From: Acaryochloris marina MBIC11017 | Lineage (GTDB): Bacteria; Cyanobacteriota; Cyanobacteriia; Thermosynechococcales; Thermosynechococcaceae | DNA length: 32,000 nucleotides | Assembly (NCBI RefSeq): GCF_000018105.1 | Contig: NC_009925.1 | Location: forward strand, 6,090,001-6,122,000 | Direction: 5' to 3' | Shown: piece after piece, positions 3,367 through 31,000 of the stretch | How positions within the stretch are numbered: the first letter of the stretch is position 1 | Layout: each line of letters begins with the position of its first letter | Notes under the pieces: model-generated | Database searches by the model: none | What the model was told of the DNA's origin: nothing | The model's input: the letters and a program-made list of their open reading frames with translations, nothing else | Made by a program: the position numbers and the translations under genes

Positions 3367-4563
3367 TCATCCGATTTGGACCGATGATGATTCGAGTACC
3401 ATCTGCAAAATAGCCCCTAAACCAGAACTCATTTCTGCAGGAGTGATTTTGCCGTCATGGTCTTGATCCAGGGCATCAAATACAGCATCTGTTCCTAACC
3501 ATTCTTCCCGGGTGATACAACCATCACCATCCAGATCGTAGCTGTTAAAAATATTGGCGGTTGCAGTACTAACATTAACGTCAGCTTCTAGTCGCACCAA
3601 TCGGTTAATTAGCAATTGTTCTAAGGTTTCCAGCGCTTTACTAAACCCCTTAATCCCTTCTTCTAATTTTTCAGAAGCCATTGGATCGTCGGCATGCATC
3701 TGCAAAAAGGTTGCTTGATCGATGGCCAACTTTTCTATCTCCATCCCTGCTGCCTTACTGGGATCGAGTTTTCGCGGCACATTATCAGTACTGGCTTGTA
3801 ACTGTGCCAGTAGCTTAGGTGAAATGGTGAGGAGATCACATCCGGCTAATTCTAAGATCTCGCAAGTATTGCGGAAGCTAGCACCCATAACTTCAGTCGT
3901 ATACCCGAACTTTTTATAGTAGTTATATATCTGAGTAACAGACTGTACCCCCGGATCGTCAGAAGGTGTGTAATCTTGGCCAGTCTCTTTTTTATACCAA
4001 TCCAGAATCCGACCGACAAAAGGAGAGATTAAAGTAACCCCTGCTTCGGCACAGGCGATGGCCTGGTGGAGACCAAAAAGTAGCGTAAGGTTGCAGTGGA
4101 TGCCCTCTTTTTCCAAGACTTCTGCAGCTTGAATCCCTTCCCATGTGGAGGCGATTTTGATTAAGATGCGATCTCGGTTAATTCCTGCTTTTTCATATTC
4201 AGAAATAAGGTAACGTCCTTTGGCAATCGTGGCCTCTTTATCGTAGGAAAGTCTCGCATCAACTTCCGTTGAGACCCGCTGAGGAACGATTTCTAAAATC
4301 TTTTTGCCAAAGGATACTGCTAAGCGATCAAAGGCTAAAGACGCAATGTCTGCATGAGTTGCACCTGAACCTGCATCTGCTTTGGCTTGCAGCAAGGTTT
4401 CATCGACAATCTCTTGATATTCAGGCATTTGTGCTGCTGCAGTTATCAGAGATGGATTGGTGGTTGCATCACGGGGGGTAAACTGCTCGATCGCTTGAAT
4501 ATCACCAGTGTCAGCAACAACAACTGTAACTGCTTTGAGTTGGTCTAGTGCACTTTTGGCCAT
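3367..4563 (-). CDS. tal: Transaldolase fused to a C-terminal pair of EF-hand calcium-binding loops
   Basis: [22 protein letters not shown]...TTNPSLI...[13 protein letters not shown]... is a textbook class I transaldolase. The C-terminus has two canonical 12-residue EF loops, [12 protein letters not shown] and [13 protein letters not shown] chose the ATG at 4563 ([10 protein letters not shown]) because the 23 upstream codons of the track ORF look like a non-coding extension. Confidence 0.9.
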
Positions 4564-4911
4564 GACTGATTCCCTGTAGTAATGGGTGATGCCTTTACAC
4601 TGTAGCGTTGAAGAACTAGGGATTCGAGCCATGTAAGCATTGGCTCTAGTTCCCCGATCTCATTGTGAATAACAGACTTAACTTATTACACATTACTCAC
4701 TCTAGATATGGATTAATGCCATATGAACCCTATCTTGGAAAATTCTCAGAATCCTCTGGATTCAACCTCAGTTTCCTATGACTTAATCAACATAGACATT
4801 CAAAGGTTGATGCATCTCTTACTCTAATCCTCGATGGATGAGTGATTTCAATGATTGCCACGTACGTTCTGCATCAATGTCTAGTTCTGCTACCAAAACA
4901 AAGGATTAACG

Positions 4912-5238: not shown

Positions 5239-5560
5239 ATGCCACAGGAAGGTAACCTTGCACTTCCGTATCTAGGGAGGCACAAGTTGGAAGTCTGTTC
5301 AGTGCCCCAAAGCTATTTATTTGCGCGCAAATCTCCATCTCTCATCGCCAACCTTGACAGCGTTTGCAGACCATAAAGTTTGGCCTGAATCACTTATCCG
5401 TTTTCCACCTACCCTACCCCTATCAGGTCACAATTTCAGATGGGGGCATCTCAGGAGCGACCTTTGTATCATGAGTATGATAGCTCTATATCTTTTAGGA
5501 TTCTGATGTGATATTTCTGATGGAATCTGTATCCTTGATCCAAACGGTGCTTTAATTTGG

Positions 5561-6778
5561 ATGACCTTTGATATGCTCGATTCCTCAAAGATTTTCGTTC
5601 AAGGAATAGCACTCATTGCCTTCGGAGTAGTGTCTTGTACTTCCCCACAACGAACGGGTCCAAGCTCTTTAGCTTCTGAGAAACAGGAGTTGGCTGCCCA
5701 GCCAGGAGCAGCTCAATGTACCTTAGTGGACAATGGCTTTGGCCCTCAAGGACAAGTTCAGATCAGGGTGGAAGAAGTGGTATCAGGGTTAGAGGTGCCC
5801 TGGGGTATTGCCTTTTTGCCGAATAACCGCATGTTGGTAACAGAGCGGCTCGGACGAATTCGGTTGGTTCAGAATGGCAAGTTACGCTCTCAGCCTATTG
5901 CTACAGTTAGGGTCAGCGATCGGGGTGAAGGGGGATTGTTGGGGATTGCCACCCATCCTGATTTTGCCAATAACCGATTCTTCTATATCTATTTCACCGC
6001 CAGCCAGCCTGGGAAATCTGTCAATCGAGTTGAGCGCTGGCGATTGTCAGAAGATGGGGGCAAAGCAATCCGCGATCGCATTATTGTAGACAACATTCCC
6101 GTTGCTCGCTTCCATAATGGTGGACGAATTCGATTCGGCCCGGACGGGATGCTCTATATTGGCACGGGTGATGCCCGAGATCCTGACCTATCTCAGGATG
6201 TTAACAGCTTAGCGGGTAAGATATTGCGGGTAACTCCAGAAGGACAGGTCCCCGCCGATAATCCTTTTGCCAATAATCCAGTCTATATTTTGGGGATTCG
6301 CAATACCCAAGGATTTGATTGGATCAATCCTTCCACCCTTTGGGTGAGTGATCATGGTCCAAGTGGTGAGTTGGGACGGTCAGGACATGATGAAATCAGC
6401 GTGGCCCAAGCTGGAGATAATTTGGGCTGGCCCACGGTGTATCGATGTGAATCCCAACCTGGATTGGTCCCTCCGACCCTCACCTGGCGTCAAGCCCTAC
6501 CCCCTGGCGGTGCTGCAGTATACACAGGGGATGCTGTTCCAGAGTGGAAAGGGAGCTTTTTGGTAGCAGGACTGCGGGCTGAACAGTTGCAACGTATCGT
6601 CATTGATCCTCAATCCGGTCAGTTGAAGCAGCATGAAGTTTATTTGCAAGGTCAGCAAGGACGTTTGAGAGAGGCTGTGATGGGACCTGATGGTGATTTG
6701 TATATCACGACGAGTAATTGTGACGGTCGGGGTAGATGCTCAGCAGACCGAGATAAGATTCTGCGCATTACTCGCTAA
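5561..6778 (+). CDS. PQQ-dependent sugar dehydrogenase (soluble glucose/sorbosone dehydrogenase family beta-propeller), probable lipoprotein
   Basis: 405 aa. Family-typical strings are VPWGIAFLPNNRMLVTERLGRIRLV, GLLGIATHPDF, HNGGRIRFGPDGMLYIGTGD and GNLGWP. The N-terminal hydrophobic segment ends in a lipobox-like VVSC. Confidence 0.85.
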   Translation: MTFDMLDSSKIFVQGIALIAFGVVSCTSPQRTGPSSLASEKQELAAQPGAAQCTLVDNGFGPQGQVQIRVEEVVSGLEVPWGIAFLPNNRMLVTERLGRIRLVQNGKLRSQPIATVRVSDRGEGGLLGIATHPDFANNRFFYIYFTASQPGKSVNRVERWRLSEDGGKAIRDRIIVDNIPVARFHNGGRIRFGPDGMLYIGTGDARDPDLSQDVNSLAGKILRVTPEGQVPADNPFANNPVYILGIRNTQGFDWINPSTLWVSDHGPSGELGRSGHDEISVAQAGDNLGWPTVYRCESQPGLVPPTLTWRQALPPGGAAVYTGDAVPEWKGSFLVAGLRAEQLQRIVIDPQSGQLKQHEVYLQGQQGRLREAVMGPDGDLYITTSNCDGRGRCSADRDKILRITR

Positions 6779-6789
6779 TTGCTTGATGC

Positions 6790-6820
6790 ATCTCTCTTGA
6801 TCCAAGAGAGATTGGGTTTT
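6790..6820 (+). terminator. Rho-independent terminator candidate after the dehydrogenase gene
   Basis: Perfect 10-bp stem ATCTCTCTTG (6790-6799) / CAAGAGAGAT (6803-6812) with a 3-nt loop, followed by TGGGTTTT. It lies 12 nt after the stop codon. Confidence 0.6.
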
Positions 6821-7174
6821 GCCGCCGCTATTCCTTTCGGTATAGCTTGATTGTATCCATCTATAACGACGAGTGATCTTTGGTAGCTTAAGGTATGGAA
6901 GCCATCCATAACCTGTCGGTGAAATGAATATTGTAAGAGGTCTAATATACTTGGGTAGTTGTCTCATTATTGAGTAGTCACAACACCATATCTGCATGAT
7001 GTAACCCCCATTGTCTGCTGGAGTAGATACTGATTTTTCCGGGCTTCAATTTGTTAGTGATGGAAAACTTCAATCTATTTCAATGATTAATATCCCGTTC
7101 CCCGATTGATTGAGATTTGCAGTGTCTAGTTCTATCCTCAGTGCTAGAGCAGAAATACTATTCGGGAGCAATTT

Positions 7175-10100
7175 ATGTCCCGTTCCCTCAAGGTTCGTAG
7201 TGATCGTACCGACCAAGCTAAATTAGCCCTTAAACGCAATGGATTTCATAGTCAGAGAGCACTCGCTGAAGCTGCAGGTTTTTCGTTAGCAACAGTCAGC
7301 AATTTCTTACGGGGGCTACCGGTTGATTTTGCAACTTTTGTCGAGCTGAGTGCACATCTGTCTCTGGATTGGCAAAGCTTGGCTGATGTTGGCGGCTCTC
7401 AGCCAACGCCAAGCCATCAGTCTGCTGATCAGCCCCCAAGTCGTCCAGCTCAGGATCGACGTTTAAACTGGGGAGAGTCTCCAGACGTGTCCTCTTTTGT
7501 CGGTCGTTCGGCTGAACTATCGATTCTTCGCCAATGGATAGAGGTTGCTCGATGCCGCTTGATTATGATCCTGGGGATGGGAGGCATCGGCAAAACCTCA
7601 CTTTCGGTCACTTTGGTCCACCAAGTTCAAGAGAAATTTGACTGCGTAATATGGCGTAGTCTTCGGAATGCCCCCTCAGTAGAGGCTATTCTGGACCAAC
7701 TCTCTCAATGTTTTTTCCCTTCTCAGCAGAATCAAACGTCGTTGGATGCCAAAATTCTCCAGTTATTAGCGTATGTGCGAGAAAATCGTTGTTTGATTGT
7801 TCTGGATAATGTGGAATCGATTTTACAAAGTTGCGATCGCAACGACCAATTCCACGCTGCCCACGAAGGCTACCAACATCTCTTCAAAGTGATGGGTGAA
7901 ACTCAGCATCAGAGTTGTCTAATTTTGACGTCTCGGGAAGTTCCCCGATCCTTAACTACATTGACCGGAGAAACGACTCCAGTTCGAAACTTTATTCTCA
8001 AGGGTTTGCCCTATGCAGAGGCTCAGCAACTCTTTCCTTTCAAAGGCAATTTTGAAGGCCAATCTAGTGAATGGGAAACCCTGATTGACCATTACAGCGG
8101 TAATCCTCTGGCCTTAAAAATTATTGCCTCTGCGATTCAAAATTTTTTCAATGGCAATATTTCCCAATTCCTAGCCCTGCTGAAGGAAGAGACATTTGTC
8201 GTTGACGATATCCATAACTTATTAGCTGAACAATTTGATCGCCTCACCGCTTTAGAACAAGACATTATGTATTGGTTGGCTCTAAATCGGGAACCCACCA
8301 CGTGGCAAGAGCTGCAATCTGATTTAGCCAATCATCATTCATCGGCAGAGATTTTACAAGCGATCTCATCCTTAGAACGAAAGTCATTGATCGAGAAACA
8401 AAATCAAGGTTTTACTCAATCTGCCGTAGTGATGGACTTCTTGATTCAAGAGTTTGTGGAGATGATGGTCGAAGCACTGATTGCCCAAGATCTATGCCGG
8501 CTGAGTTCCCACTGTTTGATCAAGGTCAACAGCAATGATTACCTGCAAGATATACAAACTTGCTTAGTTCTAGATCCCATTACTCAAAAATTGCAGACTC
8601 ACCTTGGTTCCTTACCCCATCTTAAAGAACATCTAAAACAGATTTTGGCTCAAGCCCGACAGCAGCCGTTGCAACTTGCAGGTTACATTGGGGGCAACAT
8701 TTTCAATCTGTTACGACATTTACAGGTTGACTTAGGACATTATGATTTTTCCAATCTAACTCTGTGGCAGGCTAATCTTCAGGGGCTCCGTCTTAACAAA
8801 ATCAACTTGTCTGGATGTGATTTAGCGCATTCATCCTTTTCTCAAACCTTTAGCAGTATCCGGGCCGTTACCTTTAGCCCTGAATGGTCACAGACAGGTG
8901 TAGAGAATCAACTTTTGGCAACGGGCGATACCAGCGGTGAAATCCGCCTATGGCAGGTGCCAGAAGGACAAAATATATTAACCCTATCGGGGCATACCAA
9001 TTGGGTTTGTGCTTTAGCTTTTCATCCCAAAGAAAAGTTGCTTGCTAGTGCCAGTGCCGATCACAGCATCAAAATTTGGAATACTCATACTGGACAGTGT
9101 CTCAATACATTGATAGGCCATCGCAGCTGGGTCATGTCAGTTGCCTATAGCCCTAGCGGGAAGGAATTACAGCCATTTCTTGCCAGCTGTAGTGCAGACC
9201 GCAAGATTAAACTCTGGGATGTGCAAACGGGGCAATGCCTACAAACGTTGGCAGAACACCAACATGGCGTCTGGTCTATTGCGATTGACCCTCAAGGGAA
9301 ATACGTAGCCAGTGCTAGTGCAGATCAGACGGTTAAGCTTTGGGATGTCCAAACGGGACAATGTTTACGAACATACCAGGGGCACTCACAAGGGGTTTGG
9401 TCCGTGACCTTTAGCCCGGATGGCAAGCTTTTAGCGACAGGTAGTGCAGACCAAACCATCAAACTGTGGAATGTGCAAACGGGACAGTGCCTAAACACAT
9501 TCAAGGGCCATCAAAATTGGGTGTGGTCGGTCTGTTTTAATCCCCAAGGGGATATCCTCGTCAGTGGTAGTGCAGATCAATCTATCCGGCTGTGGAAGAT
9601 ACAAACAGGACAATGCCTTAGAATCTTGTCTGGCCATCAAAATTGGGTGTGGTCTGTCGCTGTGAGTCCTGAAGGAAATCTGATGGCCAGTGGCAGTGAA
9701 GATCGCACCTTAAGGCTATGGGATATCCACCAAGGTCAATGCCTCAAAACCTGGCAAGGATATGGTAATTGGGTGAGATCCATTGTTTTTCATCCTCAAG
9801 GAGAAGTGCTGTACAGCGGTAGCACTGACCAAGTGATCAAACGGTGGTCTGCCCAGTCTGGAAAGTATTTAGGGGCTTTATCGGAGAGTGCTAATGCCAT
9901 TTGGACTATGGCGTGCCACCCCACGGCTCAATGGTTAGCGAGTGGGCATGAAGATAGCAGTGTAAAGCTATGGGATCTTCAAACTCATCAATGCATCTAT
10001 GCCATCACTAGGCATCTCAATACAGTGTGGTCAGTTGCCTTTAATCCATCGGGAGATTACCTAGCAAGTGGTAGTGCAGATCAAACGATGAAGCTCTGGC

Positions 10101-10750
10101 AGACTGAGACAGGGCAGCTGCTACAAACCTTTTCAGGTCATGAAAATTGGGTTTGCTCCGTGGCCTTCCATCCCCAAGCAGAAGTGCTAGCGAGTGGGTC
10201 TTATGATCGCACGATTAAACTTTGGAATATGACGTCAGGGCAATGTGTGCAAACTCTGAAAGGACATACTAGCGGCTTATGGGCGATTGCGTTTAGTCCA
10301 GATGGTGAACTATTGGCAAGCTGCGGCACAGATCAAACGATTAAGCTTTGGGACGTCCAGACTGGACAATGTCTGAAAACCCTGAGAGGACATGAAAATT
10401 GGGTAATGTCGGTTGCCTTTCACCCTTTGGGGCGATTGCTAGCGAGTGCCAGTGCAGACCATACCCTCAAGGTATGGGATGTTCAAAGTAGCGAGTGTTT
10501 ACAGACATTGTCAGGTCATCAAAACGAAGTCTGGTCAGTGGCCTTTAGTTTTGATGGCCAGATCTTAGCAAGTGGAGGAGACGATCAAACCCTGAAGCTT
10601 TGGGATGTTAACACCTATGACTGTCTCAAAACCTTAAGGTCTCCCAAACCCTATGAAGGAATGAATATTACAGATGTGACCGGGTTAACGCCAGCCCAGA
10701 AGGCGACTTTGAAGTCGTTAGGTGCTAAAGATCATCCACCATGTCTATGA
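7175..10750 (+). CDS. STAND NTPase: XRE-type HTH, NB-ARC ATPase, pentapeptide repeats and 14 WD40 repeats
   Basis: 1191 aa. HTH: [22 protein letters not shown]. Walker A: GMGGIGKTS (about 7574-7600). Walker B: [14 protein letters not shown]-type ILTSRE and GNPLALK motifs are present. Pentapeptide stretch: [31 protein letters not shown]. There are 14 units of the GH..WV.SVAFSP.G..LASGS.D.TIKLW type and a C-terminal tail [26 protein letters not shown]. Confidence 0.9.
8852..10640 (+). repeat. Fourteen tandem coding repeats of about 126 bp (WD40 units)
   Basis: A recurring DNA block (for example GTGCAAACGGGGCAATGCCT, GTCCAAACGGGACAATGTTT, GTGCAAACGGGACAGTGCCT) has a period of about 126 nt inside the STAND gene. 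Confidence 0.85.
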
Positions 10751-10796
10751 TGAGATTAGCCGATAAGTCATTAAATGGAGAAGATTCTTTACCTAT

Positions 10797-11642
10797 ATGC
10801 AAGCTCCCCCTAAAACATCGGTAATTTCTACGGATAAATTTACAAATCCGTCATTACCCGCTCAATTTATGGTGATGATTATTATCTCGTGGGTGTTGCT
10901 TCTATTTGTAGGCGGAAGTTTATTCTTCTTCCCTGGGTTTGCTCGCAGCCACTGGATGTGGGCATTAACTCCTTTTAATACCAATTTCTTAGGGGCCGTG
11001 TATCTAAGTGCATGGGTGCCTTTAACGGTGGTCTTATGGGTTCGCCGCTGGGCGCCTGCACGGCTAATTCTACCGATGCTTTGGGTCGTAACTACTTTTA
11101 TCCTGATAGCCTCGTTTTCCCATCCTGAGCAGTTTGCGTTAAACCGGCGTGTCACAGGGATTTGGTATTGGCTCTATTTAGTTGACTGCCTGGGAGCCAC
11201 TTACTACTTGGGCAAATTTCACAGTCGTCCTCCTGCTAGTTCATCACGAGTCGGGAAGCAGTGGGCTTTGGTATTGCGGGCTCAGGGCTTTGCATTGGGC
11301 GGGTTTGGTGTAGGTTTGCTCGGAATCCCCGCCTTGTTTGGTCAATTTTGGCCTTGGCCCCTCGATCTTTTTCACTGTCAGTTGTACAGCTCAATTTTTA
11401 TTGCTGGAGCGGTGGGCAGTTGGGTATTGCAGCGAGCAGCAACTTCAGTTGAGCTGTTGACGATGGGTCTGACTCAGTTGACATTTAGCCTTTTAGTTCT
11501 GATCGGGATGACAGTGGTAGATGCTTCGGTGCATAAAATCCAGTGGCTGCAGGCTGGAACTATTGTTTGGCTAGGTAGTTTTGTTGTTTTAGGTTTCATT
11601 GGCATGATGATGATTCGTCAGTCTTGCAAAGCTGATGCATAA
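10797..11642 (+). CDS. Multi-pass membrane protein of unknown function (about 8 TM, apparent 2 x 4-TM internal duplication)
   Basis: 281-aa hydrophobic ORF, 46 nt downstream of and co-directional with the STAND gene. The halves align by eye: FFPGFARSHWMWALTPFNTNFLGAVYLSAWV against GIPALFGQFWPWPLDLFHCQLYSSIFIAGAV. Confidence 0.7.
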   Translation: MQAPPKTSVISTDKFTNPSLPAQFMVMIIISWVLLLFVGGSLFFFPGFARSHWMWALTPFNTNFLGAVYLSAWVPLTVVLWVRRWAPARLILPMLWVVTTFILIASFSHPEQFALNRRVTGIWYWLYLVDCLGATYYLGKFHSRPPASSSRVGKQWALVLRAQGFALGGFGVGLLGIPALFGQFWPWPLDLFHCQLYSSIFIAGAVGSWVLQRAATSVELLTMGLTQLTFSLLVLIGMTVVDASVHKIQWLQAGTIVWLGSFVVLGFIGMMMIRQSCKADA

Positions 11643-11892: not shown

Positions 11893-12022
11893 GACATTTC
11901 TAAAAATATCTCTAAAAGTCTTCTATTACCGCCGTCAAATTTCTCCTCAAACCGTTCAGGCCATCCTTCAATCTCATGCTGAAGGCAGTAGCATCGGAGG
12001 CCTATCCCACATCACAGGTGTG
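11893..12022 (+). pseudogene. Remnant of an IS1-family insA (5' fragment)
   Basis: It translates to ...YYRRQISPQTVQAILQSHAEGSSIGGLSHITGV, matching CYRRQISPETIQTILQAHVEGSSLRGLSRITGV of the intact copy at 18892-19269. Nucleotide identity is roughly 78% by eye. Confidence 0.65.
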
Positions 12023-12024
12023 AT

Positions 12025-12070
12025 TAAATATTGGTAAGCCTCCGGCTTGTCGGGGGCTTACCAATATTTA
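12025..12070. repeat. 46-bp palindromic element (16-bp perfect arms)
   Basis: TAAATATTGGTAAGCC (12025-12040) and GGCTTACCAATATTTA (12055-12070) are exact reverse complements around a GC-rich 14-nt spacer. The element directly abuts the break point of the IS1 remnant. Confidence 0.8.
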
Positions 12071-13437
12071 GTTAATATGAATAAAATACTTTACCATCTA
12101 AACCAAATAATTCCGCTGTTGAAACCTCTACATAACTATCACTTACTCTAAAGTTGCTATCGAGCAATTGAACCCTTTGAGTATGCTGCTGTTTGCAAGT
12201 TTTAAAAGAACAAATGTTCGATGATTTTTGTGCCATTTCAACTAAACTAAGTTGATTGTTTAATGATCTAATCCTAACGATAAATTTATTCATTCTTTTT
12301 GTATTTTTATATTAGATGTAATGGCTCAATATTTATATTTCAAAGTCTAGTTTTTTCTTAGGCTATTGAGCTGTAAGAGTTCTTGTAAGGTCTTTCCATC
12401 ATGATAGATGTTGAATCTTCGCTAGAAAGAAGTAGTTGATAATTGAGCTAAAGACGATGATTGCGAACTCTTTCAGGAGTGATATCTGTAAGATAACCCT
12501 AAATATCATCATTATTTATATAGGTGAAAATCATCACTCTGCCAAATGACAATCTTTCGATTATTAAAAAAGCCTATATGTTGCAGGTTGACCATTAACC
12601 CTTACTCCATTTCAACTTCGATCATCATCACAGGTTCCATCAATTAGTTTGTATTTCTTATTATCACTACTCTGAACCTGGACTAGCTGGGTGTGGTCCT
12701 TAGATATTGTATATGAGAGTAGATAAATATCGATGTCAGGTTTCCTGTCAATAGAGTAGACTATACGGTACTTTTATGTCTCAGCGCTAAGAAATGCTTA
12801 GCATGTTCCATTAATATGTAAAACTCATTAGTGATGAATAGTATTTTTCTCATATCTAATAGTAAATCTAAAAACTATCAATACAATCAGTGATATTACT
12901 TATTTTGCAACTTAATGTGATGTGCAACAAGACAAAATATTTCCGAATTATTGAATAATATATCCTTGTTGATAATTTCAATTAAGCCAATATTGTATGA
13001 TATTTAATTTCTATTTTATAGAATTAATAAGTGAAGTTGAAGATGTGACTTCTCAATAAATTTAATTGCTGAATTAGCCTGTGATGCTTTCTATTTATGA
13101 TATTCAGCGATCTTTAGTATTTTGAATATCAGTATATTTTTGTTGTGCTTTTCAGTAGTTTTTCTATATAAAAATTACTCTATATAGAAATAAATAGCTT
13201 ATACATAAAATAAGTTTTTGATGGCGATCCGTGTTTATACTGACAGCTGAGATGATTGGCACGGGTAAGTTAGTAATACTACTAAGATTTTTCAAAAATT
13301 ATATTTATATATGATCTGTAATTCTAAATGAATTTCATCTCATGAATTGAGGATGTGCATGTATTTTGAAATTTCCTATTATTAAAAGTCTACAAAAAAG
13401 TAGATATCAATAATAATTTTATCTCTGAGTGCTTGAT

Positions 13438-13917
13438 ATGATGAATCAACAAATTCTACGCTATTTACTCAATTTTAAGAATCGCAATAGTAATCGAGGT
13501 TTCACGCTTTTAGAATTATTGGTAACAATAGTGATAATGGCAGTGCTTTCTGGCATAGCCTTACCATCTGTTCTAAATCAAACCCTTAAAGCAAAACAAG
13601 CAGCTGCTCATAACCATATTGGCTCAGTCAATCGGGCACAGCAAGTATATCGTCTTGAACGTGCAACATTTGCTAACTCCATTACTCAGTTGAGTATTGA
13701 TCTACCTATGACGACCAATGAATATACCTATTCATTTGGTGCAGCAAACGCCACTGTTGCTGAGTTTAGAGCTACTCCTCAAGATAATTCTCTGAGTGCT
13801 TTGACGGGATGTACACGCGCCAATATCGTAATAGGGACTTTAGCCACAACAGATTTTTCGATTGTTGAGCAGTCAGCTCCCGGTGGAGGTATTCCTGCTA
13901 CTCCTCCCAGTTGCTAG
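13438..13917 (+). CDS. Type IV pilin-like protein (prepilin with an N-terminal cleavage/methylation motif)
   Basis: ...NRNSNRG/FTLLELLVTIVIMAVLSGIALPS is the class III signal with Glu at +5, followed by the cyanobacterial pilin string SVNRAQQVYRLERATFA. Two C-terminal Cys residues are present. The track ORF starts at GTG 13429. The ATG at 13438 or 13441 is the more likely start. Confidence 0.85.
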   Translation: MMNQQILRYLLNFKNRNSNRGFTLLELLVTIVIMAVLSGIALPSVLNQTLKAKQAAAHNHIGSVNRAQQVYRLERATFANSITQLSIDLPMTTNEYTYSFGAANATVAEFRATPQDNSLSALTGCTRANIVIGTLATTDFSIVEQSAPGGGIPATPPSC

Positions 13918-14395
13918 CATGATTTAATAATAAGCAGTCACAAATGCGATGAGTGAGTTGGTGAAGTTTGAGATATTGCCCCTTCTCCAACATGACTTCC
14001 AGGTAAACCTTCGTTTGGTTGAGTTCGTTTAAGCTTAACATCATCTCTATCTCTTTCCGACTCAGTAGTGGAAATGTATAGACCACAATCGTTTCACTTA
14101 ACTTCATTATCGCCACAAGTCTCTGATTGATCTGTACTTGAGGCTGGAACCTTGATAGCAAAGCTTGAGCTTGGGTGACGGTATCTTCTGAATCGGCCAC
14201 AATCAACTGCATTAGACCCACGCCCAGAGGGTCAACGGGTTCATTCAAGTCATCAAGGTAGATTCAGTGAACTTGATCGCTGTTTAAATTGGCTCGGAAG
14301 ACTGGATATAATCAGGCTCAATGCTACGTTGAGGGTAAATAACAACGGCTTGCCAGACCACGCCACGGTATCAGGTACAGATTGAGATACAGATA
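13898..14395 (-). pseudogene. Rpn-family (PD-(D/E)XK, DUF2887/DUF4351-type) recombination-promoting nuclease/putative transposase, decayed distal part
   Basis: Family-typical strings are spread over three frames with stops: QAVVIYPQRSIEPDY, SDQVH*IYLDDLNEPVDPLGVGLMQLIV, and MKLSETIVVYTFPLLSRKEIEMMLSLNELNQTKVY. The 3' end is cut short and overlaps the pilin gene stop by 20 nt. Confidence 0.7.
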
Positions 14396-15349
14396 TAGCA
14401 GTCGCCATATTGAGAAGGACTTAAACTAGAGAAGTATTTTATTCCTTCTCCTGTGTGATGCCCAAAATTTATAGTTACGACCTACGTTGCAAAGTGATAG
14501 ATGCGATTGAGCTAGATGGGATGCGCCCTTCTGAGGCTAGTGAGCTGTTCGATATCAGTCGTAACACCATTAACCAATGGCAACACCTCAAGGCGGAAAC
14601 GGGTGATTTGCATCCCAAGCCAGTCCATCATCCTGGCCATAGCCATAAAATCACTGACTGGGACAAGTTTCGAGCGTTTGCCCACAAGCATCGTCATAAA
14701 ACCCAAGCTCAGATGGCTCAACTATGGGATGGAGAGATTAGTGATCGAACCATCTCAAGAGCCCTCCAGAAAATCGGATTTACTCGAAAAAAAAACATAT
14801 GGGTACCGAGAACGAGATGAGCACAAACGGGCAGAGTTCATCAAACGTCTAAGTACCGTAGATCCAGACGATATCGTCTATGCGGATGAGTCGGGCATGG
14901 ATCATCGAGACGAGTATGACTATGCTTATGGCCCCAAAGGTGAGCGGGTTTATGCTTTGAAGACTGGGCGTAGAAGCGGCCGAGTCAATATGATTGCGGC
15001 GTTGAGAGCCAAGCAATTAATGGCGCCGTTCACGATCGAAGGAGCTTGCAATCGCACCGTATTTGAAATTTGGCTGGAGCGTTGCTTGATACCTATGCTC
15101 AAACCTGGGCAGAAGCTGGTGATTGATAATGCCACTTTCCACAAGGGGGGACGAATACAGGAATTAGTGGAAAAAGCAGGATGTGAGGTTTGGTATTTAC
15201 CGCCTTATTCCCCTGACTTGAATAAGATTGAGCGGTCTTGGTCATGGATTAAAAGTCGCATCCGTCACCAATTAGACCATTTTGGGTCTCTCAGAGAAGC
15301 AATGGAACATGTCCTGCATCTGGCGTCCTGAATAGTATGGCGACTGCTA
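14396..15349 (+). mobile_element. IS630-family insertion sequence with a TA target-site duplication
   Basis: The terminal inverted repeats match over a 16-nt perfect reverse-complement stretch: TATAGCAGTCGCCATA (14394-14409) and TATGGCGACTGCTATA (15336-15351). The outermost TA on each side (14394-14395 and 15350-15351) is read as the duplicated target. A DDE transposase lies inside. Confidence 0.85.
14455..15331 (+). CDS. IS630-family DDE transposase, two frames joined at an A9 run
   Basis: Frame 1 encodes the HTH part (...ALQKIGFTRKK). The +1 frame continues ...KTYGYRERDEHKRAEF...DESGMD...DNATFHKG...LPPYSPDLNKIE (DD35E). The frames meet at AAAAAAAAA 14787-14795. Confidence 0.8.
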
Positions 15350-15567: not shown

Positions 15568-15659
15568 CTAACGTTTCTCTACTAAAATCTATCTTGAAAA
15601 TTTTGCTTTTGGGTTTAGGATTGAAGGCATATGATTCGGTTTCAGATGGGGGACTGTTG

Positions 15660-17147
15660 ATGAAGCGTACTCATGCTTATAAGCCAGAAAAATCTAAGTC
15701 ACAACCGATACCTCAACAGATATCATCAGATCAAGCTCAATCAGCAACACCAGTTCCTCCCCCTATCCAAGCGAAAACAAATGAAGAAGGTTTGGCTGAA
15801 TGGAAAGCTCAACAGGAGAAGTGGGAAAAGTTTGGAACACCTTGGCAAGATAAGGTTCCTAATCCTTCAGGGGAATTGGCACAACCTTGGATTCAGCGGA
15901 AACTAACCCTTGGACAACCAGGAGATAAGTATGAACAGGAAGCGGATCGGATTGCTTCTCAGGTAGTACAGCAAATTAATGCCCCTACTTTATCTCAATT
16001 CAATCAAGGGCAATCCGTACAACGAGAGAAAGAATTGGAAGAGGAAGTCTTAGCGCAAAGTATTCGTCCTGCCATTCAGCGTCAGCAAGAAAAGACAGAT
16101 GAAAAAATATCATCAGAGTTAGAGTCTTCTATTAATACTGCTAGAGGTAGCGGACAGCCATTGGATACAGGATTGCAACAGTCAATGGGTCAGGTTATGG
16201 GTGCAGATTTTAGTGGCGTGAGGGTGCATACGGATGCCCAATCAGACCAATTGAATCAATCAATTCAGGCGAGGGCATTTACAACCGGGCAGGATGTATT
16301 TTTCCGAGAGGGGGCATATCAGCCAGGGAATCGTCATGGGCAAGAGTTGATTGCCCATGAGTTAACTCATGTAGTGCAACAGAATAGTGCAATTCAGGCT
16401 AAGAGAAGTAGTGTATCGTTCGAGCGGCTGCCTTCTAGAGAGCAGACTGAGAAAAGTGCAATGGCTTTTGGCCAACCTAGTGAGATAGTCAACCAATCGC
16501 CAGCAGGCCGAGTACATCGCTGTTGTGGAACAAGCGGCCCGACCGAACTTAAGGATGAGTTAGTGGGGACAGGTAGTAAACCAGGGGTGATCGTTGAAGC
16601 AATCCTCAATAAATCTGAAGAGTTTGCTAGCCTTAAAGCTAAGGCAGGAGTGACATACAAGACGGCTAAGAAGGGAACATCGGGTTCGTATGATCCTGAA
16701 AGCCATGAGGTCCGCCTAGCAAAAGGACAGAACACAACAACAGCCTTGAACGCAATTTTTGAGACTGCAAATGCCATACAGCATTCGCGATTTGCAAAAG
16801 TTAAAAATGCTTATGACAAAGGTGAATTTGAAAATGGAGCAAAACTGTCTGATTGGGAAGTAGACTCTCTAGACCCACTAAATCCCACTACTCCCGAAGA
16901 GTGGCGTGCTGCAATTCAAGAGTACTATGAGTGGGATAGCTTTCAGCTTGCGAGAAAAACCTTCGAAGAAGTAGAACCTTTCTTCAAAGAAGCGGGTAAG
17001 AGCGATGAGTTTGAAGCATTTGGAAAGTTTTTCCCTTGTGAAAATTTTTCAGACTATATCGGAGTCGCTAAAACGAACCACTACCGAGATCAGGTCACTC
17101 GCCTAAACGCAGCAAAAGACCCAAAGCGCATTAAGTTAAACTTCTAA
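15660..17147 (+). CDS. DUF4157-domain (HExxH zincin-like) protein with an uncharacterised C-terminal domain of about 230 aa; toxin-like architecture
   Basis: Signature strings are LTLGQPGDKYEQEADRIASQVV and GADFSGVRVHTDAQSDQLNQSIQARAFTTGQDVFFREGAYQPGNRHGQELIAHELTHVVQQ. I chose the ATG at 15660 (MKRTHAYK) over the upstream TTG of the track ORF. Confidence 0.85.
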   Translation: MKRTHAYKPEKSKSQPIPQQISSDQAQSATPVPPPIQAKTNEEGLAEWKAQQEKWEKFGTPWQDKVPNPSGELAQPWIQRKLTLGQPGDKYEQEADRIASQVVQQINAPTLSQFNQGQSVQREKELEEEVLAQSIRPAIQRQQEKTDEKISSELESSINTARGSGQPLDTGLQQSMGQVMGADFSGVRVHTDAQSDQLNQSIQARAFTTGQDVFFREGAYQPGNRHGQELIAHELTHVVQQNSAIQAKRSSVSFERLPSREQTEKSAMAFGQPSEIVNQSPAGRVHRCCGTSGPTELKDELVGTGSKPGVIVEAILNKSEEFASLKAKAGVTYKTAKKGTSGSYDPESHEVRLAKGQNTTTALNAIFETANAIQHSRFAKVKNAYDKGEFENGAKLSDWEVDSLDPLNPTTPEEWRAAIQEYYEWDSFQLARKTFEEVEPFFKEAGKSDEFEAFGKFFPCENFSDYIGVAKTNHYRDQVTRLNAAKDPKRIKLNF

Positions 17148-17157
17148 TCATCTATTT

Positions 17158-18126
17158 ATGATCCCCGGAGATATCCTTAAGGCTATTCGCCTCAGCGTTA
17201 TTACCCTTGCGAGTGATGCAGATATTGCTTTGGGGGAACTAATGTCTACTACTCTTCCAGACCCACTCCCACCTGTAGCGATCTTGCCTGTGGCCACAGG
17301 CTTAGCATGCGGTGGTTCAATAGAGCAACTTATCCCTGTCACCTCAACAATAGTTGCGGTTGCCTTTGCACTTCGTACTCTCGACGATATAGCTGATCAA
17401 GATAACTCTAATGCGCTGCATCAAAAAATAGGTATTGGACGTGCAGCAAATTTCTCTGCTGCGCTAATTGCCTTAGCTTCGCGTGAGATAGGAGTTCTCT
17501 CTAAATCATCACCCGATAGCATCCTCATGACAGGAGACTACTTTGATGCTCTGCTACGGATATTTGTTGGACAGGATAAAGACATTCAAAGAGAAGTTCG
17601 TTCATTGGTAGCATACGAAGAAGTCGTTGAATTGAAGACTGTTGCTGCTTATGAGCTAGCAGCAATTGTGGGTGCCAATGCTGTTACTGCCGATGGAAAT
17701 TTCACAAAGAAGTGTCGAGTCTGTGGTCGTCATATTGGTTGGGCACAGCAAATACTTGATGATATTGAGGCGTTCTGGTTTCTGGACAATGCAGAAGAAT
17801 CCGGTCATGAACAGTATACGTACCCTGTACTTCTAGGGATAGAGAATGGTGGTAGTACAGGTGAAGCAGTGTCAAGGCTTTGTAATCAGAAAGACCGAAA
17901 CGATGATGCTATTCGTAACCTACTGGATAGTCTTGATGTCCGAGGTCAATTAATGATGCGAGCATTAGATCATCGTGACCAGGCCCTGTTAGTTCTTGGT
18001 CCACCACTTCGGTCAGAGGGACATCAGCTTATCAAATTGTGGTTTGATTGGCTCTTTCGTGACGGAGAGCGCTTGTTGAAATTGTCATCATCAAGAAGTT
18101 TAATAAGTGGGTCGCCCTTGAGCTGA
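17158..18126 (+). CDS. Divergent polyprenyl synthetase-like (trans-isoprenyl diphosphate synthase fold) protein
   Basis: 322 aa, with its ATG 10 nt after the previous stop. The layout matches trans-IPPS enzymes: ACGGSIEQLIPVTSTIVAVAFALRTLDDIADQD (first Asp-rich motif), GQDKDI, LKTVAAYELAAIVGA, HIGWAQQILDDIEAF (second Asp-rich position), YTYPVLLGIE. The canonical RRG is missing and the second motif reads DDIEA. Confidence 0.6.
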   Translation: MIPGDILKAIRLSVITLASDADIALGELMSTTLPDPLPPVAILPVATGLACGGSIEQLIPVTSTIVAVAFALRTLDDIADQDNSNALHQKIGIGRAANFSAALIALASREIGVLSKSSPDSILMTGDYFDALLRIFVGQDKDIQREVRSLVAYEEVVELKTVAAYELAAIVGANAVTADGNFTKKCRVCGRHIGWAQQILDDIEAFWFLDNAEESGHEQYTYPVLLGIENGGSTGEAVSRLCNQKDRNDDAIRNLLDSLDVRGQLMMRALDHRDQALLVLGPPLRSEGHQLIKLWFDWLFRDGERLLKLSSSRSLISGSPLS

Positions 18127-18829: not shown

Positions 18830-19728
18830 TCGTGCATCAAAGAAGTGTGGGTTTGTTAAACCGATAGGGAGTCGAGTTGTTTTATTTCCTCATGCAATGT
18901 CCTCTATGTGGTCATCCTAAAACCCACAAACATGGCAAGACCAGCAAAGGCAGTCAACGTTACCGTTGCCCCCACTGTCAACAGACCTTTAGTGAGACCT
19001 TTGACACCCTGTGTTATCGCCGTCAGATCTCTCCTGAAACGATCCAGACCATCCTTCAAGCTCATGTTGAAGGGAGTAGTCTACGAGGACTCTCTCGCAT
19101 CACGGGTGTAGCGTATAACACTTGTGTGAGTGTGGTTCGTTCAGCGAGTCATAAATCCCAAATGATTCACAATGGGGAAGTTCAGGCCGTTGCGACCGAC
19201 GTCATTAATGCAGATGAGTTGTGGTCCTTTGTCAAAAAAAGCAAAAGCACTGTGAGCCGAAGGAGTTGAGGGTAGGCGACTGCTGGATAGCATTGAGTCT
19301 TGCGAAAGAGAGTGGTCTCGTGCTCAGTGGCCGTATTGGCAAACATACCGACGAGCTAGCTCAAGAATTGATTGAAAATACTGAGGGCAAAACCGCCTGT
19401 CATCATTGGCAAACGGATGGTTGGGAAGGGTACGCACGACAATTACCCGATGAGGTCGTCCATGAAGTGAGTAAAGCCCTGACCCAACGCTTAGAGCGGA
19501 CCAATGGCATCGTGCGTCAGCAGACCGGGCGTTGGCATCGACGACAGAATAAGTTTGGCAAAGTCTGGCAACAGAGTGCGATGACTTTAAGATTGGTGCT
19601 GAGCTATTTCAACTGGATTTGGTGCCACTCTCGATTCAAGAACACGGCTGCCCAACGAGCTGGATTGACGGAGCGTCCTTGGAGATGGCAAGACTTAGCT
19701 TCCTATCCCACACTTTGTTGATGCACAA
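18830..19728 (+). mobile_element. IS1-family insertion sequence, apparently intact
   Basis: The imperfect terminal inverted repeats are GTGCATCAAAGAAGTGTGGG (from 18832) and the reverse complement of CCCACACTTTGTTGATGCAC (ending at 19726). InsA and InsB frames lie inside. The outer boundaries are uncertain by a few nt. Confidence 0.8.
18892..19721 (+). CDS. IS1-family transposase InsAB' (insA 18892-19269; the insB frame reaches 19721 after a -1 frameshift)
   Basis: InsA has a zinc finger (CPLCGH...CPHCQQTF) and an HTH. The slippery run AAAAAAA (19234-19240) lies in the overlap, and the downstream ORF is in the -1 frame, as in IS1 (A6C motif). The InsB part includes WQTDGWEGY. Confidence 0.8.
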
Positions 19729-20376
19729 TCTAATATTCTTGGCTAACCAACCTCGAAAATTTCGTTACGCAGGCATTGAATTAATGTTCATTCTCTGGTG
19801 TCGTAGCTAATAATCAGTGGGCTTCTTAACGTAAGTATCATTTTTCTCTTAAAAAAGTGACACGCTCCCTCCTACGATTAGTCAAAACTCCTACAGAATC
19901 AAATGGAAGACACCTTTTGCTCAGTCTAGAGGGGTTCGGATATGTACGTCCAGAGCACTTGCGTAGGAATTCGATGATGATGCTTGGTCAATCATTTAAA
20001 AATTGATTTATTTCCTGAAAAAAGTGATCTAAATCAGTGACAAGCCAATTAAAAAAATTAATTTTTTGATCCCAGAAAACTATCTGTAAGTAGAAAATTC
20101 TATATTTTTTTATCTCTCTATACCTCAAGCTTAACTCAGTTTTAAGTCAGCTATTCTCAGTTCTAAAGTCATATATACATCTTCTTGAATATAGATAGAT
20201 GCAGTTTAGATGGCTCTTATATGAGAGTTTCATGCTTCTTTGCAACTTCAAGGCATTGCTTTGAATTAGTCATTACAAGATGCAAGTTATTTCTAATGTG
20301 TTTTTCTTTGAAATACCAGATAATTCTTGTTTTTTTAGCTATAGAGATAAAGTTTCTTCTAGTAACAGATGAAGTC

Positions 20377-29783: not shown

Positions 29784-31000
<1,217 letters not shown>

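Follow-up and report, generated by a model that had tools for sequence, protein, structure and literature searches.

MalT, GutR, and AfsR are presented as non-immune STAND transcription regulators in PMC13581612 and PMC10427625, the latter of which also describes MalT as additionally controlled through sequestration by inhibitory proteins such as MalY. Cyanobacterial WD40 STANDs are often assigned to conflict systems (PMC7159879, PMC8195603, and PMC13581612); the closest bacterial homologues of Apaf-1 are cyanobacterial, and some clades of the Apaf-1-like WD40 STANDs of cyanobacteria are associated with defence (PMC13581612).

The 32,000-nucleotide stretch of Acaryochloris marina DNA that was analysed (the window) encodes one of the more than 2,000 proteins that make up a cyanobacterial HTH-NB-ARC-(pentapeptide)-WD40 family, followed by a gene for a membrane protein of an uncharacterised family. 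Homologues of the STAND protein are annotated either as "NB-ARC / NACHT domain-containing protein" or as "transcriptional regulator with XRE-family HTH domain," and no experimentally characterised member of the family was found in literature searches. The two genes are read here as a bicistronic operon that would join a MalT/AfsR-like, ligand-gated transcription switch to a membrane partner, a reading to which we give about an even chance.

Architecture of the two proteins and their putative transcription unit

Both open reading frames were found where the original prediction had placed them (Table 1), and its four-module description of the STAND protein proved accurate, with NB-ARC and 14 WD40 repeats recognised by Pfam, a borderline pentapeptide stretch, and the HTH recovered by fold match. 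An M1-x-R-S-x-K motif, invariant in 13 orthologues, confirms the start codon, and across these orthologues the HTH region has 31 invariant columns. In Pfam the HTH remained sub-threshold (HTH_31, 19.3 bits, cut-off 27; HTH_3, 17.8 bits, cut-off 23). An AlphaFold model of residues 1-100 contains five helices, with a pLDDT of ~90 across residues 1-70, and the XRE-family proteins HipB, C.BclI, SinR, and ImmR superpose on it at 1.3-2.2 Å over 55-60 residues (Foldseek probability 1.0); by this match the N-terminal domain is a predicted XRE-type HTH. The NB-ARC module scored 44.3 bits against a cut-off of 23.5 (PF00931, E 1.7e-11) and carries Walker A (GMGGIGKT, aa 134), Walker B (LIVLDNVE, aa 207), TSRE sensor-1-like (ILTSRE, aa 250), and GNPLA (GNPLALK, aa 309) motifs; a PDB sequence search with it gave weak matches to PH0952, Sr35, and MLA13.

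The pentapeptide stretch, also kept in the consensus of the wider STAND family, scored on either side of the PF00805 cut-off of 20.2 (19.7 bits in a 560-aa context, 23.6 bits as an isolated fragment). Thirteen of the 14 WD40 units are 42 aa long and one is 46 aa. All orthologues examined have 14 units, with partial positional orthology of the blades (identity 0.55-0.57 at the same position versus 0.45-0.47 at other positions), and within the protein the blades are fairly similar to one another (mean identity 0.46). Judging by their number, the blades probably form two 7-bladed propellers.

Table 1. Features of the STAND-membrane protein locus, in window coordinates
Feature	Position	Strand	Basis
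Terminator-like hairpin 3' of GSDH gene, 5' boundary of unit	6790..6812	+	10-bp perfect stem, 3-nt loop, T-rich tail
Non-coding region, presumed operon promoter	6813..7174	+	Weak sigma-70-like match; promoter function putative
STAND NTPase gene, 1191 aa, HTH / NB-ARC / pentapeptide / 14xWD40	7175..10750	+	ORF and domain matches
XRE-type helix-turn-helix (predicted), aa 1-72	7175..7390	+	AF2 model and Foldseek; Pfam scores below cut-offs
NB-ARC nucleotide-binding oligomerisation module, aa ~104-470	7484..8584	+	PF00931
Pentapeptide-repeat stretch, aa ~523-560, NOD-to-WD40 linker	8741..8854	+	PF00805, about gathering score
14 WD40 repeats, aa 553-1144, presumed sensor	8831..10606	+	Pfam WD40, E 1.9e-166
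STAND C-terminal tail, with motif common to paralogues	10607..10747	+	Motif comparison
Intergenic spacer, 46 nt, GGAG ~17 nt 5' of membrane-gene ATG	10751..10796	+	Sequence inspection
8-TM membrane protein gene, 281 aa, uncharacterised family	10797..11642	+	ORF, TM prediction, structure model
Membrane protein repeat 1, TM1-4, aa 22-142, W-x-W-x-L-T-P-F-N...G-A-x-Y	10860..11222	+	hhalign
Membrane protein repeat 2, TM5-8, aa 150-281, W-P-W-P-L-D-x-F-H...Y-S	11244..11639	+	hhalign
Strong hairpin, 20-nt arms, candidate 3' end of unit	12025..12070	.	Hairpin search

The downstream product had been described as a duplicated 8-TM protein, which is correct. Its model (pLDDT 92.3, pTM 0.88) consists of eight well packed TM helices, and because the N- and C-terminal halves align with each other (hhalign probability 96.8%, E 2.4e-10), it is read as a 4+4 internal duplication. 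The predicted topology is N-in/C-in with very short cytoplasmic loops; of its 18 invariant residues, 14 are on the side away from the cytoplasm, and the invariant aromatics are grouped at the periplasmic or lumenal face. By sequence profile, the family had no match in Pfam, NCBIfam, PADLOC, or PDB, and no viral structural match was found when one was looked for. Members lacking a STAND occur in Chloroflexota and Actinobacteria, where they adjoin or are fused to lipid/redox enzymes; domains fused to some of these homologues are DUF4383, fatty-acid desaturase, CDP-alcohol phosphatidyltransferase, and FHA, the last being cytoplasmic in one distant homologue. There is no more than a hint of a role connected with lipids or membranes.

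Among solved structures, only chain O of PDB 8xqw, the chloroplast import motor Ycf2-FtsHi of Chlamydomonas, has a similar multi-helix membrane fold (Foldseek probability 1.0, TM 0.51/0.46, 301 columns). This match is weak (E 0.039, rmsd 7.7 Å, identity 13%), a sequence-profile search with the membrane protein did not match the chain, and the resemblance is offered as a lead, not as a claim of membership. The complex contains Moc45, with at least seven TM helices, near the desaturase FAD6a (preprint, bioRxiv 10.1101/2024.09.02.610899); a desaturase is likewise fused to one homologue of the membrane protein.

The membrane gene had been called the only co-directional neighbour of the STAND gene, but a GSDH gene (5561..6778) also lies on the + strand, 396 nt upstream. 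A hairpin follows this gene, a search of the 46-nt spacer for terminator-like hairpins found none, as had been noted, and the first strong terminator-like structure 3' of the membrane gene is the hairpin at the end of Table 1. The sole sigma-70-like match in the presumed promoter region is weak (7110-7138, TTGAGA-17-TATCCT). When an operator was sought by upstream k-mer search, only the promoter-like CTGGTTTAAT was recovered, in a subclade; this extended -10-like sequence is conserved 80-100 nt 5' of the STAND ATG at six orthologous loci and is not clearly present in the A. marina window.

Conservation of the gene pair

The four STAND modules were compared by tblastn with 30 loci found through the membrane protein. 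A STAND of the HTH-NB-ARC-WD40 type was found immediately upstream and on the same strand at 20 of the 23 cyanobacterial loci, its orthologues being full-length and 44-62% identical per module. Starting from the STAND instead, the membrane gene was found downstream in both clade members checked (P0046 and P0049). All-against-all ORF clustering showed these two genes to be the only ones common to the loci; the genes around them are unrelated, housekeeping, and different from locus to locus. Despite the reshuffled flanks, the pair, its orientation, and its short spacing persist to ~50% protein identity. Because the pair recurs in ~20 other cyanobacteria, the STAND and the membrane protein almost certainly work together, and the novelty of the locus, which had been said to hinge on the pairing being a conserved module, is borne out in that respect.

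The gap between the genes is -1 to 15 nt in 10 loci and 46 nt in the window. A separate regulated promoter in the spacer is unlikely because orthologous gaps are mostly this short, and the same spacing points to co-transcription from a promoter 5' of the STAND gene. Co-transcription of the membrane gene with a regulator is by itself silent on which is input and which output. The identity matrices of the two proteins correlate strongly (r = 0.97, Mantel p ~2e-4), a congruence that shared vertical descent alone could produce.

Among 133 family members, 13 of the 14 paired STANDs group in a single clade of 17, which is seen in 21 of 30 bootstrap replicates, or in 23 if one additional member is tolerated. 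No membrane gene follows the paralogues P0062 and P0121, which lie outside this clade; P0053 lies at a contig end and is uninformative on this point. The link to the membrane gene is therefore specific to one STAND clade.

At three cyanobacterial loci (L007, L008, and L029) the membrane gene lacks a STAND of the paired type. An AraC-family regulator takes its place in L007, whose membrane protein branches within the STAND-linked clade. In L016 a paralogous STAND of another clade stands beside the membrane gene; both partners are outliers and the arrangement is kept. By eye only, the N terminus of the L016 STAND looks like a sigma-r4/LuxR-type HTH, different from that of the window, and Sigma70_r4-NB-ARC-WD40 fusions are on record in cyanobacteria (PMC11119718). 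With that visual assignment, the membrane gene would in both cases keep a DNA-binding protein as its neighbour. The pair is patchily distributed among cyanobacteria, IS elements, an integrase, or a Tn3 transposase can be found near some copies, and one partner is disrupted at L018, L026, L031, and L032, which may reflect MAG assembly error or real decay.

A candidate switch and alternative readings

The STAND protein would act as a cytoplasmic switch in which an XRE-type HTH is joined to an NB-ARC NTPase like that of Apaf-1 and to a WD40 sensor of 14 blades. On the model of MalT, AfsR, and GutR, ligand on the repeat sensor would release autoinhibition and permit ADP/ATP exchange and multimerisation, gathering the HTH domains on DNA and regulating at least the protein's own operon; both DNA binding and ATP-dependent oligomerisation are expected from this analogy. 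The membrane protein, as obligate partner of the switch, would most likely be the regulated output, providing a membrane function when it is needed, and might alternatively or additionally be the signal source for the WD40 sensor, comparable to the sequestration of MalT by an idle maltose transporter. It is in this form that we infer the assignment of input and output. Counted against the switch are the upstream k-mer search that recovered no operator, the sub-threshold HTH, the silence of co-transcription on input and output, the conflict-system assignments, the patchy distribution, the nearby mobile elements, the mirror-tree caveat, and the four loci with a disrupted partner.

The locus had originally been proposed as an NLR-like sensor-output pair. 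As an antiphage or conflict system, it would detect a phage or invader protein through its WD40 propellers and oligomerise through its NB-ARC, with the 8-TM protein as a membrane-disrupting abortive-infection effector and the HTH only an autorepressor or adaptor. The combination of STAND and repeat sensor suits this reading, as do the defence-associated Apaf-1-like clades (PMC13581612), the patchy distribution, and the mobile elements by some copies; the fairly high blade identity also suits it, but the constant blade number and partial positional orthology are not those of rapid turnover. None of the four PADLOC matches of the STAND was to an antiphage STAND (Avs/NLR-type) model, comprising a strong HEAT-ARM_XIII match from the WD40 region and marginal CARF3--CARF, PDC-S27, and TRIP13 matches (E 0.001-0.004), and the membrane protein had none. 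The N terminus is an XRE HTH by fold, with no enzymatic or death-type effector domain in the protein, and the flanks of the window and 10 other loci hold metabolic/housekeeping genes and no defence islands. The membrane protein is also a conserved, well packed fold without viral structural match, which occurs apart from STANDs, by or fused to lipid/redox enzymes, in Chloroflexota and Actinobacteria. This reading is accordingly held to be improbable. Profile searches upheld the NB-ARC assignment of the original prediction and not an Avs-like one; PADLOC, the N-terminal domain, and the flanks gave no positive evidence for its immune sense. The XRE fold, PADLOC, the flanks, and the regulator replacements all agree with its preference for a transcriptional output rather than an Avs-like effector. 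Its overall interpretation is thus partly supported, with the pairing conserved, the transcriptional output consistent with the evidence, and the immune sense unsupported.

It is possible, if rather unlikely, that the membrane protein is an upstream sensor or anchor for a periplasmic, lumenal, or outer-leaflet cue, holding and releasing the STAND through its WD40 domain as in a MalK-MalT-like or ToxR/ToxS-like pair, with the true target genes elsewhere. The close spacing, with probable translational coupling, suggests that the two proteins are made in stoichiometric amounts, the mostly non-cytoplasmic invariant residues resemble a ligand site, one distant homologue bears the cytoplasmic FHA signalling domain, WD40 propellers are typically protein-binding platforms, and MalT sequestration offers a precedent (PMC10427625). 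Because the cytoplasmic loops are very short, however, there is little surface for a propeller to bind, and the AraC-type regulator of L007 suits a regulated target better. That the genes are merely adjacent and co-inherited, their neighbourhood simply inherited within a small group of related cyanobacteria, appears highly improbable: pure vertical inheritance of linked genes would equally yield the mirror-tree correlation, and three loci lack the paired STAND, but the arrangement outlasts the reshuffling of its flanks to ~50% identity, is confined to one clade of more than 2,000 paralogues, and recurs in the divergent pair at L016.

Comparison with known systems

Like Avs and bNACHT proteins, the window STAND is tripartite, its output domain being N-terminal and its repeat sensor C-terminal, but it lacks a nuclease, protease, TIR, or Sir2 effector, and the pair lacks a defence-island context, its orthologues appearing conserved and vertically inherited. 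With Apaf-1 and bacterial AP-ATPases it shares an NB-ARC NOD bearing Walker A, Walker B, TSR, and GxP motifs, and, as in Apaf-1, the NOD is followed by WD40 repeats enough for two propellers. Apaf-1 has 15 blades (7+8), whereas the window STAND has 14. A predicted XRE HTH occupies the effector position that holds a CARD or caspase-like protease in Apaf-1-like proteins, and the pentapeptide stretch before the propellers and the dedicated membrane-protein partner gene are further differences from Apaf-1. The large cyanobacterial family has HTH, NOD, pentapeptide stretch, and C-terminal tail in its consensus, as does the window STAND, and the 8-TM gene link is limited to one clade of ~17 sampled members.

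MalT, AfsR, and GutR are not known to have a conserved co-transcribed 8-TM partner, and their sensors are TPR/SUPR where the window STAND has WD40 and an NOD of the NB-ARC subtype. The DNA-binding domain is C-terminal and LuxR-type in MalT, an N-terminal SARP in AfsR, and an N-terminal XRE HTH, by fold, in the window. All of these proteins nevertheless place a STAND NTPase, a repeat sensor, and a DNA-binding domain in one polypeptide, and the logic expected here would be that described in PMC10427625, PMC4381067, and PMC6468293, in which inducer-dependent multimerisation leads to transcription activation.

Conservation of the gene pair in cyanobacteria

Loci carrying the membrane gene were collected by a pattern scan across one genome per GTDB species, derived from the 12-sequence alignment A2, which returned 30 loci and could miss members of the family. 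The pairing of the STAND gene with the membrane gene is real and conserved. A STAND gene was present in 20 of 23 assessable cyanobacterial loci found from the membrane gene, the window counted, which answers the earlier question of whether the pair recurs in other cyanobacteria; the loci lacking one were L007, L008 and L029. Full orthologues with all four modules (tblastn) lie directly 5′ of the membrane gene and on the same strand in L001–L005, L011, L012, L014, L015, L017, L026 and L030, with identities to the window protein of 46–62% in the HTH, 43–49% in the NB-ARC nucleotide-binding oligomerisation module (NOD) and 53–57% in the WD40 region. A complete NOD–linker–WD40 gene (∼42% and 45% identity) precedes the membrane gene in L016, and by tblastn the XRE HTH module had no counterpart in this upstream STAND. 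A STAND-like C-terminal part is present on the truncated contigs L006, L009, L010 and L013, only degraded remnants lie beside the membrane gene in L018, and the same layout was seen in L038, a closer relative from Acaryochloris-like reads. The two genes are separated by −1 to 15 nt in ten loci, and in L005 an extra SDR-like ORF lies between them. When every ORF was clustered all-against-all, the STAND and the membrane protein were the only families common to the loci, and the immediate flanks varied between loci (SDR, homocysteine methyltransferase, MOSC, GST, RTX, kinase and transposase). It is this dedicated partnership of an NB-ARC STAND with an orphan 8-TM family that is new here.

Homologues of the N-terminal 560 aa of the STAND protein fall into more than 2,287 clusters, essentially all of them cyanobacterial. 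A neighbour-joining tree of the NOD region (133 sequences) placed 13 of the 14 paired STANDs within one 17-member clade. Of 30 bootstrap replicates, 21 reproduced this clade, and 23 did so if one extra member was allowed. Two of the four other clade members were examined (L031 and L032), and both have the membrane gene 3′ of the STAND gene. Outside the clade, no membrane partner gene was found downstream of the paralogues P0062 and P0121; the small genes that follow them were considered as partners and rejected, being split calls of the C-terminal WD40 part rather than membrane proteins. A further homologue, P0053, lies at a contig end and gives no information on a downstream partner. The identity matrices of the STAND and membrane proteins are strongly correlated (r = 0.97, Mantel p ∼2e-4), which fits co-inheritance of the pair and would equally be produced by shared vertical descent. 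All orthologues retain 14 blades, with blade identities of 0.55–0.57 at the same position versus 0.45–0.47 at other positions, so the WD40 sensor is conserved rather than shuffled.

Several pairs have a disrupted partner (L018, L026, L031 at 2601-6164 and L032 at 8605-10182). A DUF6399 gene in the opposite orientation breaks up the STAND gene of L032, that of L031 is frameshifted and split into 751 and 402 aa, and the membrane gene of L026 lies in two frames; either genuine decay or faulty MAG assembly may account for these disruptions. The dehydrogenase gene 5′ of the STAND gene (GSDH) was considered as a third member of the module and rejected. It is close to the pair in only three loci, and its side varies: it precedes the pair in the window and follows it in L009 (2911-4263) and L031 (7781-9085), a linkage too sporadic for it to be counted as part of the module. 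L031 also carries a Carot_N (OCP N-terminal-like) gene.

Gene layout and surroundings in the window

Both ORFs of the original prediction, with the spacing it gave, are present in the ORF list, and the gap between them contained no hairpin when one was sought, in agreement with its report of no visible terminator. Its description of the membrane gene as the only co-directional neighbour did not hold, as the GSDH gene is on the same strand; the terminator-like hairpin that follows GSDH makes this gene look like a separate transcription unit. GGAG is found ahead of the membrane-gene ATG. The first strong hairpin 3′ of the membrane gene is an inverted repeat that probably terminates transcription from both directions. 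When the regions 5′ of the STAND genes were searched for a shared operator or palindrome, only a promoter-like element in one subclade emerged: CTGGTTTAAT(A/G), resembling an extended −10 promoter, occurs ∼80–100 nt 5′ of the STAND ATG in L003, L004, L005, L011, L017 and L026. The CTGGTTTAAT element is not clearly present in the window, and nothing common to the window and the orthologous upstream regions was found. In an Rfam search, the window matched neither a riboswitch nor any other known RNA. The membrane protein of the window occurs with identical sequence on NCBI record AP026075.1, the chromosome of Acaryochloris marina MBIC10699 (PMC9324425).

Positions of features in the window
Feature	Position	Strand	Remarks
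Transaldolase (PF00923)	3367..4632	−	C-terminal EF-hand calcium-binding motif pair
GSDH, PQQ-type glucose/sorbosone dehydrogenase	5561..6778	+	PF07995
Terminator-like hairpin	6790-6812		3′ of GSDH gene
STAND gene	7175..10750	+	1191-aa ORF (ORF list)
STAND C-terminal tail	10640..10720		aa ∼1158-1182
Membrane gene	10797..11642	+	281-aa ORF, 46 nt 3′ of STAND gene (ORF list)
Low-GC patch	12001..14000		holds type IV pilin-like gene and DUF2887 fragment
Inverted repeat	12025..12070		20-nt arms, 95% complementary; between membrane gene and next ORF
73-aa ORF	12072..12293	−	
Type IV pilin-like gene	13429..13917		
IS element	14455..15331	+	
517-aa protein with eCIS core domain	15594..17147	+	PF13699
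Polyprenyl-synthetase-like gene	17158..18126	+	10 nt 3′ of eCIS-domain gene
IS element	18877..19721	+	
Low-GC patch	20001..21000		covers part of sulfotransferase gene
Sulfotransferase gene	20185..21198		
IS element	29784..30734	−	

The other genes of the window include a transaldolase, a methyltransferase, a pilin, cydAB, an ArsA-like ATPase, a sulfotransferase and several IS elements. The EF-hand fusion of the transaldolase is unusual for a pentose-phosphate enzyme. Three different IS elements lie within the 32 kb, an IS630-type (DDE_3, two overlapping ORFs), an IS1-type (InsA-like plus DDE_Tnp_IS1, two ORFs) and an IS110-type, and the region is rich in mobile elements. The two low-GC patches (0.32–0.34 versus ∼0.45 elsewhere in the window) may have been acquired horizontally.

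Domain structure of the STAND and membrane proteins

The architecture given in the original prediction, an XRE-type HTH head, a full NB-ARC module and 14 WD40 blades in the STAND protein followed by a duplicated 8-TM protein, was borne out at each point, the HTH on structural grounds. NB-ARC (PF00931) was detected at aa 128-321 with 44.3 bits against a cut-off of 23.5, and the four motifs of the NOD occur in order: GMGGIGKT (aa 134), LIVLDNVE (aa 207), ILTSRE (aa 250) and GNPLALK (aa 309), as judged by the patterns GxxxxGK[ST] (Walker A), hhhhD (Walker B), T[ST]R (sensor-1-like) and GxP (GLPL-type). All four are nearly invariant in the 33-member family alignment. The closest solved NODs by sequence, all weak, are those of the archaeal TPR-STAND PH0952 and the plant CNLs Sr35 and MLA13. 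By its sequence, the protein is classed as an NB-ARC (AP-ATPase) STAND NTPase, and with its HTH it belongs to an already-known kind.

The WD40 region (aa 553-1144) holds exactly 14 units, all 42 aa long except for one of 46 aa, and these would form two 7-bladed propellers; PF00400 matched over 13 stretches (E 1.9e-166), and whole-propeller Pfam models matched too. The pentapeptide stretch comprises only ∼6–7 units and is kept family-wide (33-member alignment); its PF00805 score lies around the cut-off of 20.2, at 19.7 bits within the 560-aa segment and 23.6 bits for the fragment alone. At the N terminus, HTH_3 and HTH_31 scored 17.8 and 19.3 bits, below their cut-offs of 23 and 27, and PDB sequence profiles gave HipB only weakly (E 0.3). 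An XRE-type HTH was accepted despite these sub-threshold scores because no part of the orthologue alignment is better conserved than aa 1-72 (31 invariant columns), because the AF2 model contains five helices (12-21, 27-34, 38-46, 52-61 and 66-69; pLDDT ∼90) in a lambda-repressor-like fold with helices 2 and 3 as the HTH, and because the top Foldseek matches are all XRE proteins (HipB, C.BclI, SinR, ImmR and 434 repressor; rmsd 1.3–2.2 Å, probability 1.0). The C-terminal tail recurs with little change as the last part of a paralogous STAND (L037 6849-7727) and looks like a conserved terminal module.

The AlphaFold model of the membrane protein (pLDDT 92.3, pTM 0.88) contains eight long helices, and hhalign shows homology between the two halves of the protein (probability 96.8%, E 2.4e-10, 103 columns), with the related motifs WxWxLTPFN...GAxY after TM1 and WPWPLDxFH...YS after TM5. 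Lysine plus arginine counts average 9.5 on the side with both termini and 4.7 on the opposite side, indicating an N-in/C-in topology, and the non-cytoplasmic half holds 14 of the 18 invariant residues. In this topology the invariant W53, W55 and W187 form a periplasmic motif, and RRWAPAR and RAATxxE lie in cytoplasmic loops. Single-protein searches of Pfam, NCBIfam and PADLOC returned no family, a Pfam scan of 29 family members at E <= 5 gave no consistent weak match, the PDB sequence-profile search had no match at E <= 10, and no viral fold matched in BFVD. The sole structural lead is the best PDB Foldseek match, 8xqw_O (E 0.039, TM ∼0.5), which belongs to the Chlamydomonas Ycf2-FtsHi motor; the preprint on that complex describes a subunit, Moc45, with at least 7 TM helices beside the desaturase FAD6a (bioRxiv 10.1101/2024.09.02.610899). 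This match is marginal and is treated as a lead, not as an assignment to a known family. Homologues number 45 in the word index and 1,646 representative clusters in a profile search (E <= 1e-3); the family is represented in Cyanobacteria, Chloroflexota and Actinobacteria. Judged by these searches, the protein represents an orphan 8-TM family not described before.

Proposed function and relation to known STAND systems

Occurrences of the membrane gene with other neighbours bear on its role. In L007, an AraC-family regulator lies 580 nt 5′ of the membrane gene. In the membrane tree, the product of this membrane gene branches within the STAND-linked clade, which suggests a regulator swap. In L016 (Iphinoe, Nostocales), both proteins are outliers, and the STAND N terminus differs from the XRE domain and, on visual inspection alone, resembles a sigma-r4/LuxR-type HTH; Sigma70_r4–NB-ARC–WD40 fusions are documented in cyanobacteria (PMC11119718). 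The neighbour is thus again a DNA-binding protein in L007 and probably so in L016. A DUF3095 gene adjoins the membrane gene in two loci with no STAND, L007 (2082-3134, 4787-6010) and L029 (3-785). The STAND is absent by tblastn from the Chloroflexota and Actinobacteria loci L019–L025, L027 and L028, among which FAD-dependent monooxygenases neighbour the membrane gene in L022 and L024, and a Chloroflexota MAG (L025 8843-10894, the sampled protein P0187) encodes a 683-aa ORF with an N-terminal fatty-acid desaturase (PF00487) and a C-terminal 8-TM domain. Fusions among the longer profile matches of the family were to DUF4383 (seven) and to FA_desaturase, CDP-alcohol phosphatidyltransferase (CDP-OH_P_transf) and FHA (one each); DUF4383 is itself uncharacterised, and these partners point only faintly to a lipid- or membrane-related function.

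The pair may be a regulatory switch with a membrane-protein partner, a reading to which we give about an even chance. A ligand would bind the WD40 sensor and release autoinhibition, allowing ADP to be exchanged for ATP in the NB-ARC module; the STAND would then multimerise, and the clustered XRE HTH domains would bind DNA and control transcription, minimally of their own bicistronic operon, by which the STAND would also control the 8-TM protein. The AraC substitution in L007 favours the membrane protein as the output of such a switch. A variant in which the membrane protein is the input, a sensor partner of the STAND, still draws some weight from the close coupling of the genes and from a conserved site that faces outward, and this we regard as a tentative alternative; the membrane protein may also be both output and input. 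A more elaborate form, a 'transcriptional apoptosome', is doubtful: an undescribed 8-TM receptor would report a lipid or envelope cue to the Apaf-1-like NB-ARC/WD40 ATPase, which would form an apoptosome-like oligomer and act on transcription through clustered XRE HTHs. The conserved site of this receptor would be on the periplasmic or lumenal face. The second, divergent pair in L016 has the same wiring.

Cyanobacterial HTH–NB-ARC–WD40 proteins are usually grouped with conflict systems, and the pair could likewise be an abortive-infection system. The original prediction had raised a likeness to antiphage Avs/NLR-type STANDs, yet no such model in PADLOC was matched; the four PADLOC matches were HEAT-ARM_XIII, driven by the WD40 repeats, and CARF3--CARF, PDC-S27 and TRIP13, all three marginal. 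Avs and bNACHT proteins have an enzymatic or death-type N-terminal effector, whereas the window STAND has an XRE HTH. Pfam annotation of the window and of the flanks in seven other loci revealed no defence-island setting, but metabolic and housekeeping genes together with IS elements. With an HTH head, no Avs/NLR-type PADLOC model, no viral fold match and ordinary window genes, a regulatory switch is favoured over abortive infection, which we consider quite improbable.

HTH–NB-ARC–WD40 proteins are among the largest uncharacterised families of filamentous and marine cyanobacteria, with more than 2,000 homologue clusters from the N-terminal half alone, and within this large family the pair is a clean two-gene system. 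The paired clade is unusual in having a fixed, single, conserved partner gene, which provides an experimental handle: one regulator, one candidate target or sensor, one operon. If the regulatory reading is true, it would show an Apaf-1-type switch put to gene regulation in bacteria, supply the first functional context for an orphan 8-TM family of ∼1,650 representative clusters (E <= 1e-3) and bear on how bacterial STAND clades divide between immunity and regulation.

In a recent systematic survey of prokaryotic STANDs, 198 of 589 clades were defence-associated; the transcription regulators MalT, GutR and AfsR fell in clades classed as non-immune, and caspase-like heads were noted on Apaf-1-like WD40 STANDs of cyanobacteria (PMC13581612). 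The head of the window STAND is an HTH. Like MalT, AfsR and GutR, the window protein joins a STAND NTPase and a DNA-binding domain in one polypeptide. Pfam detected no LuxR/GerE, SARP/Trans_reg_C or TPR_MalT domain in it: MalT combines a C-terminal LuxR HTH with a SUPR sensor and AfsR an N-terminal SARP with TPRs, whereas the window STAND combines an XRE HTH with WD40 repeats. By analogy, it may act like MalT, AfsR and GutR without being a member of their family.
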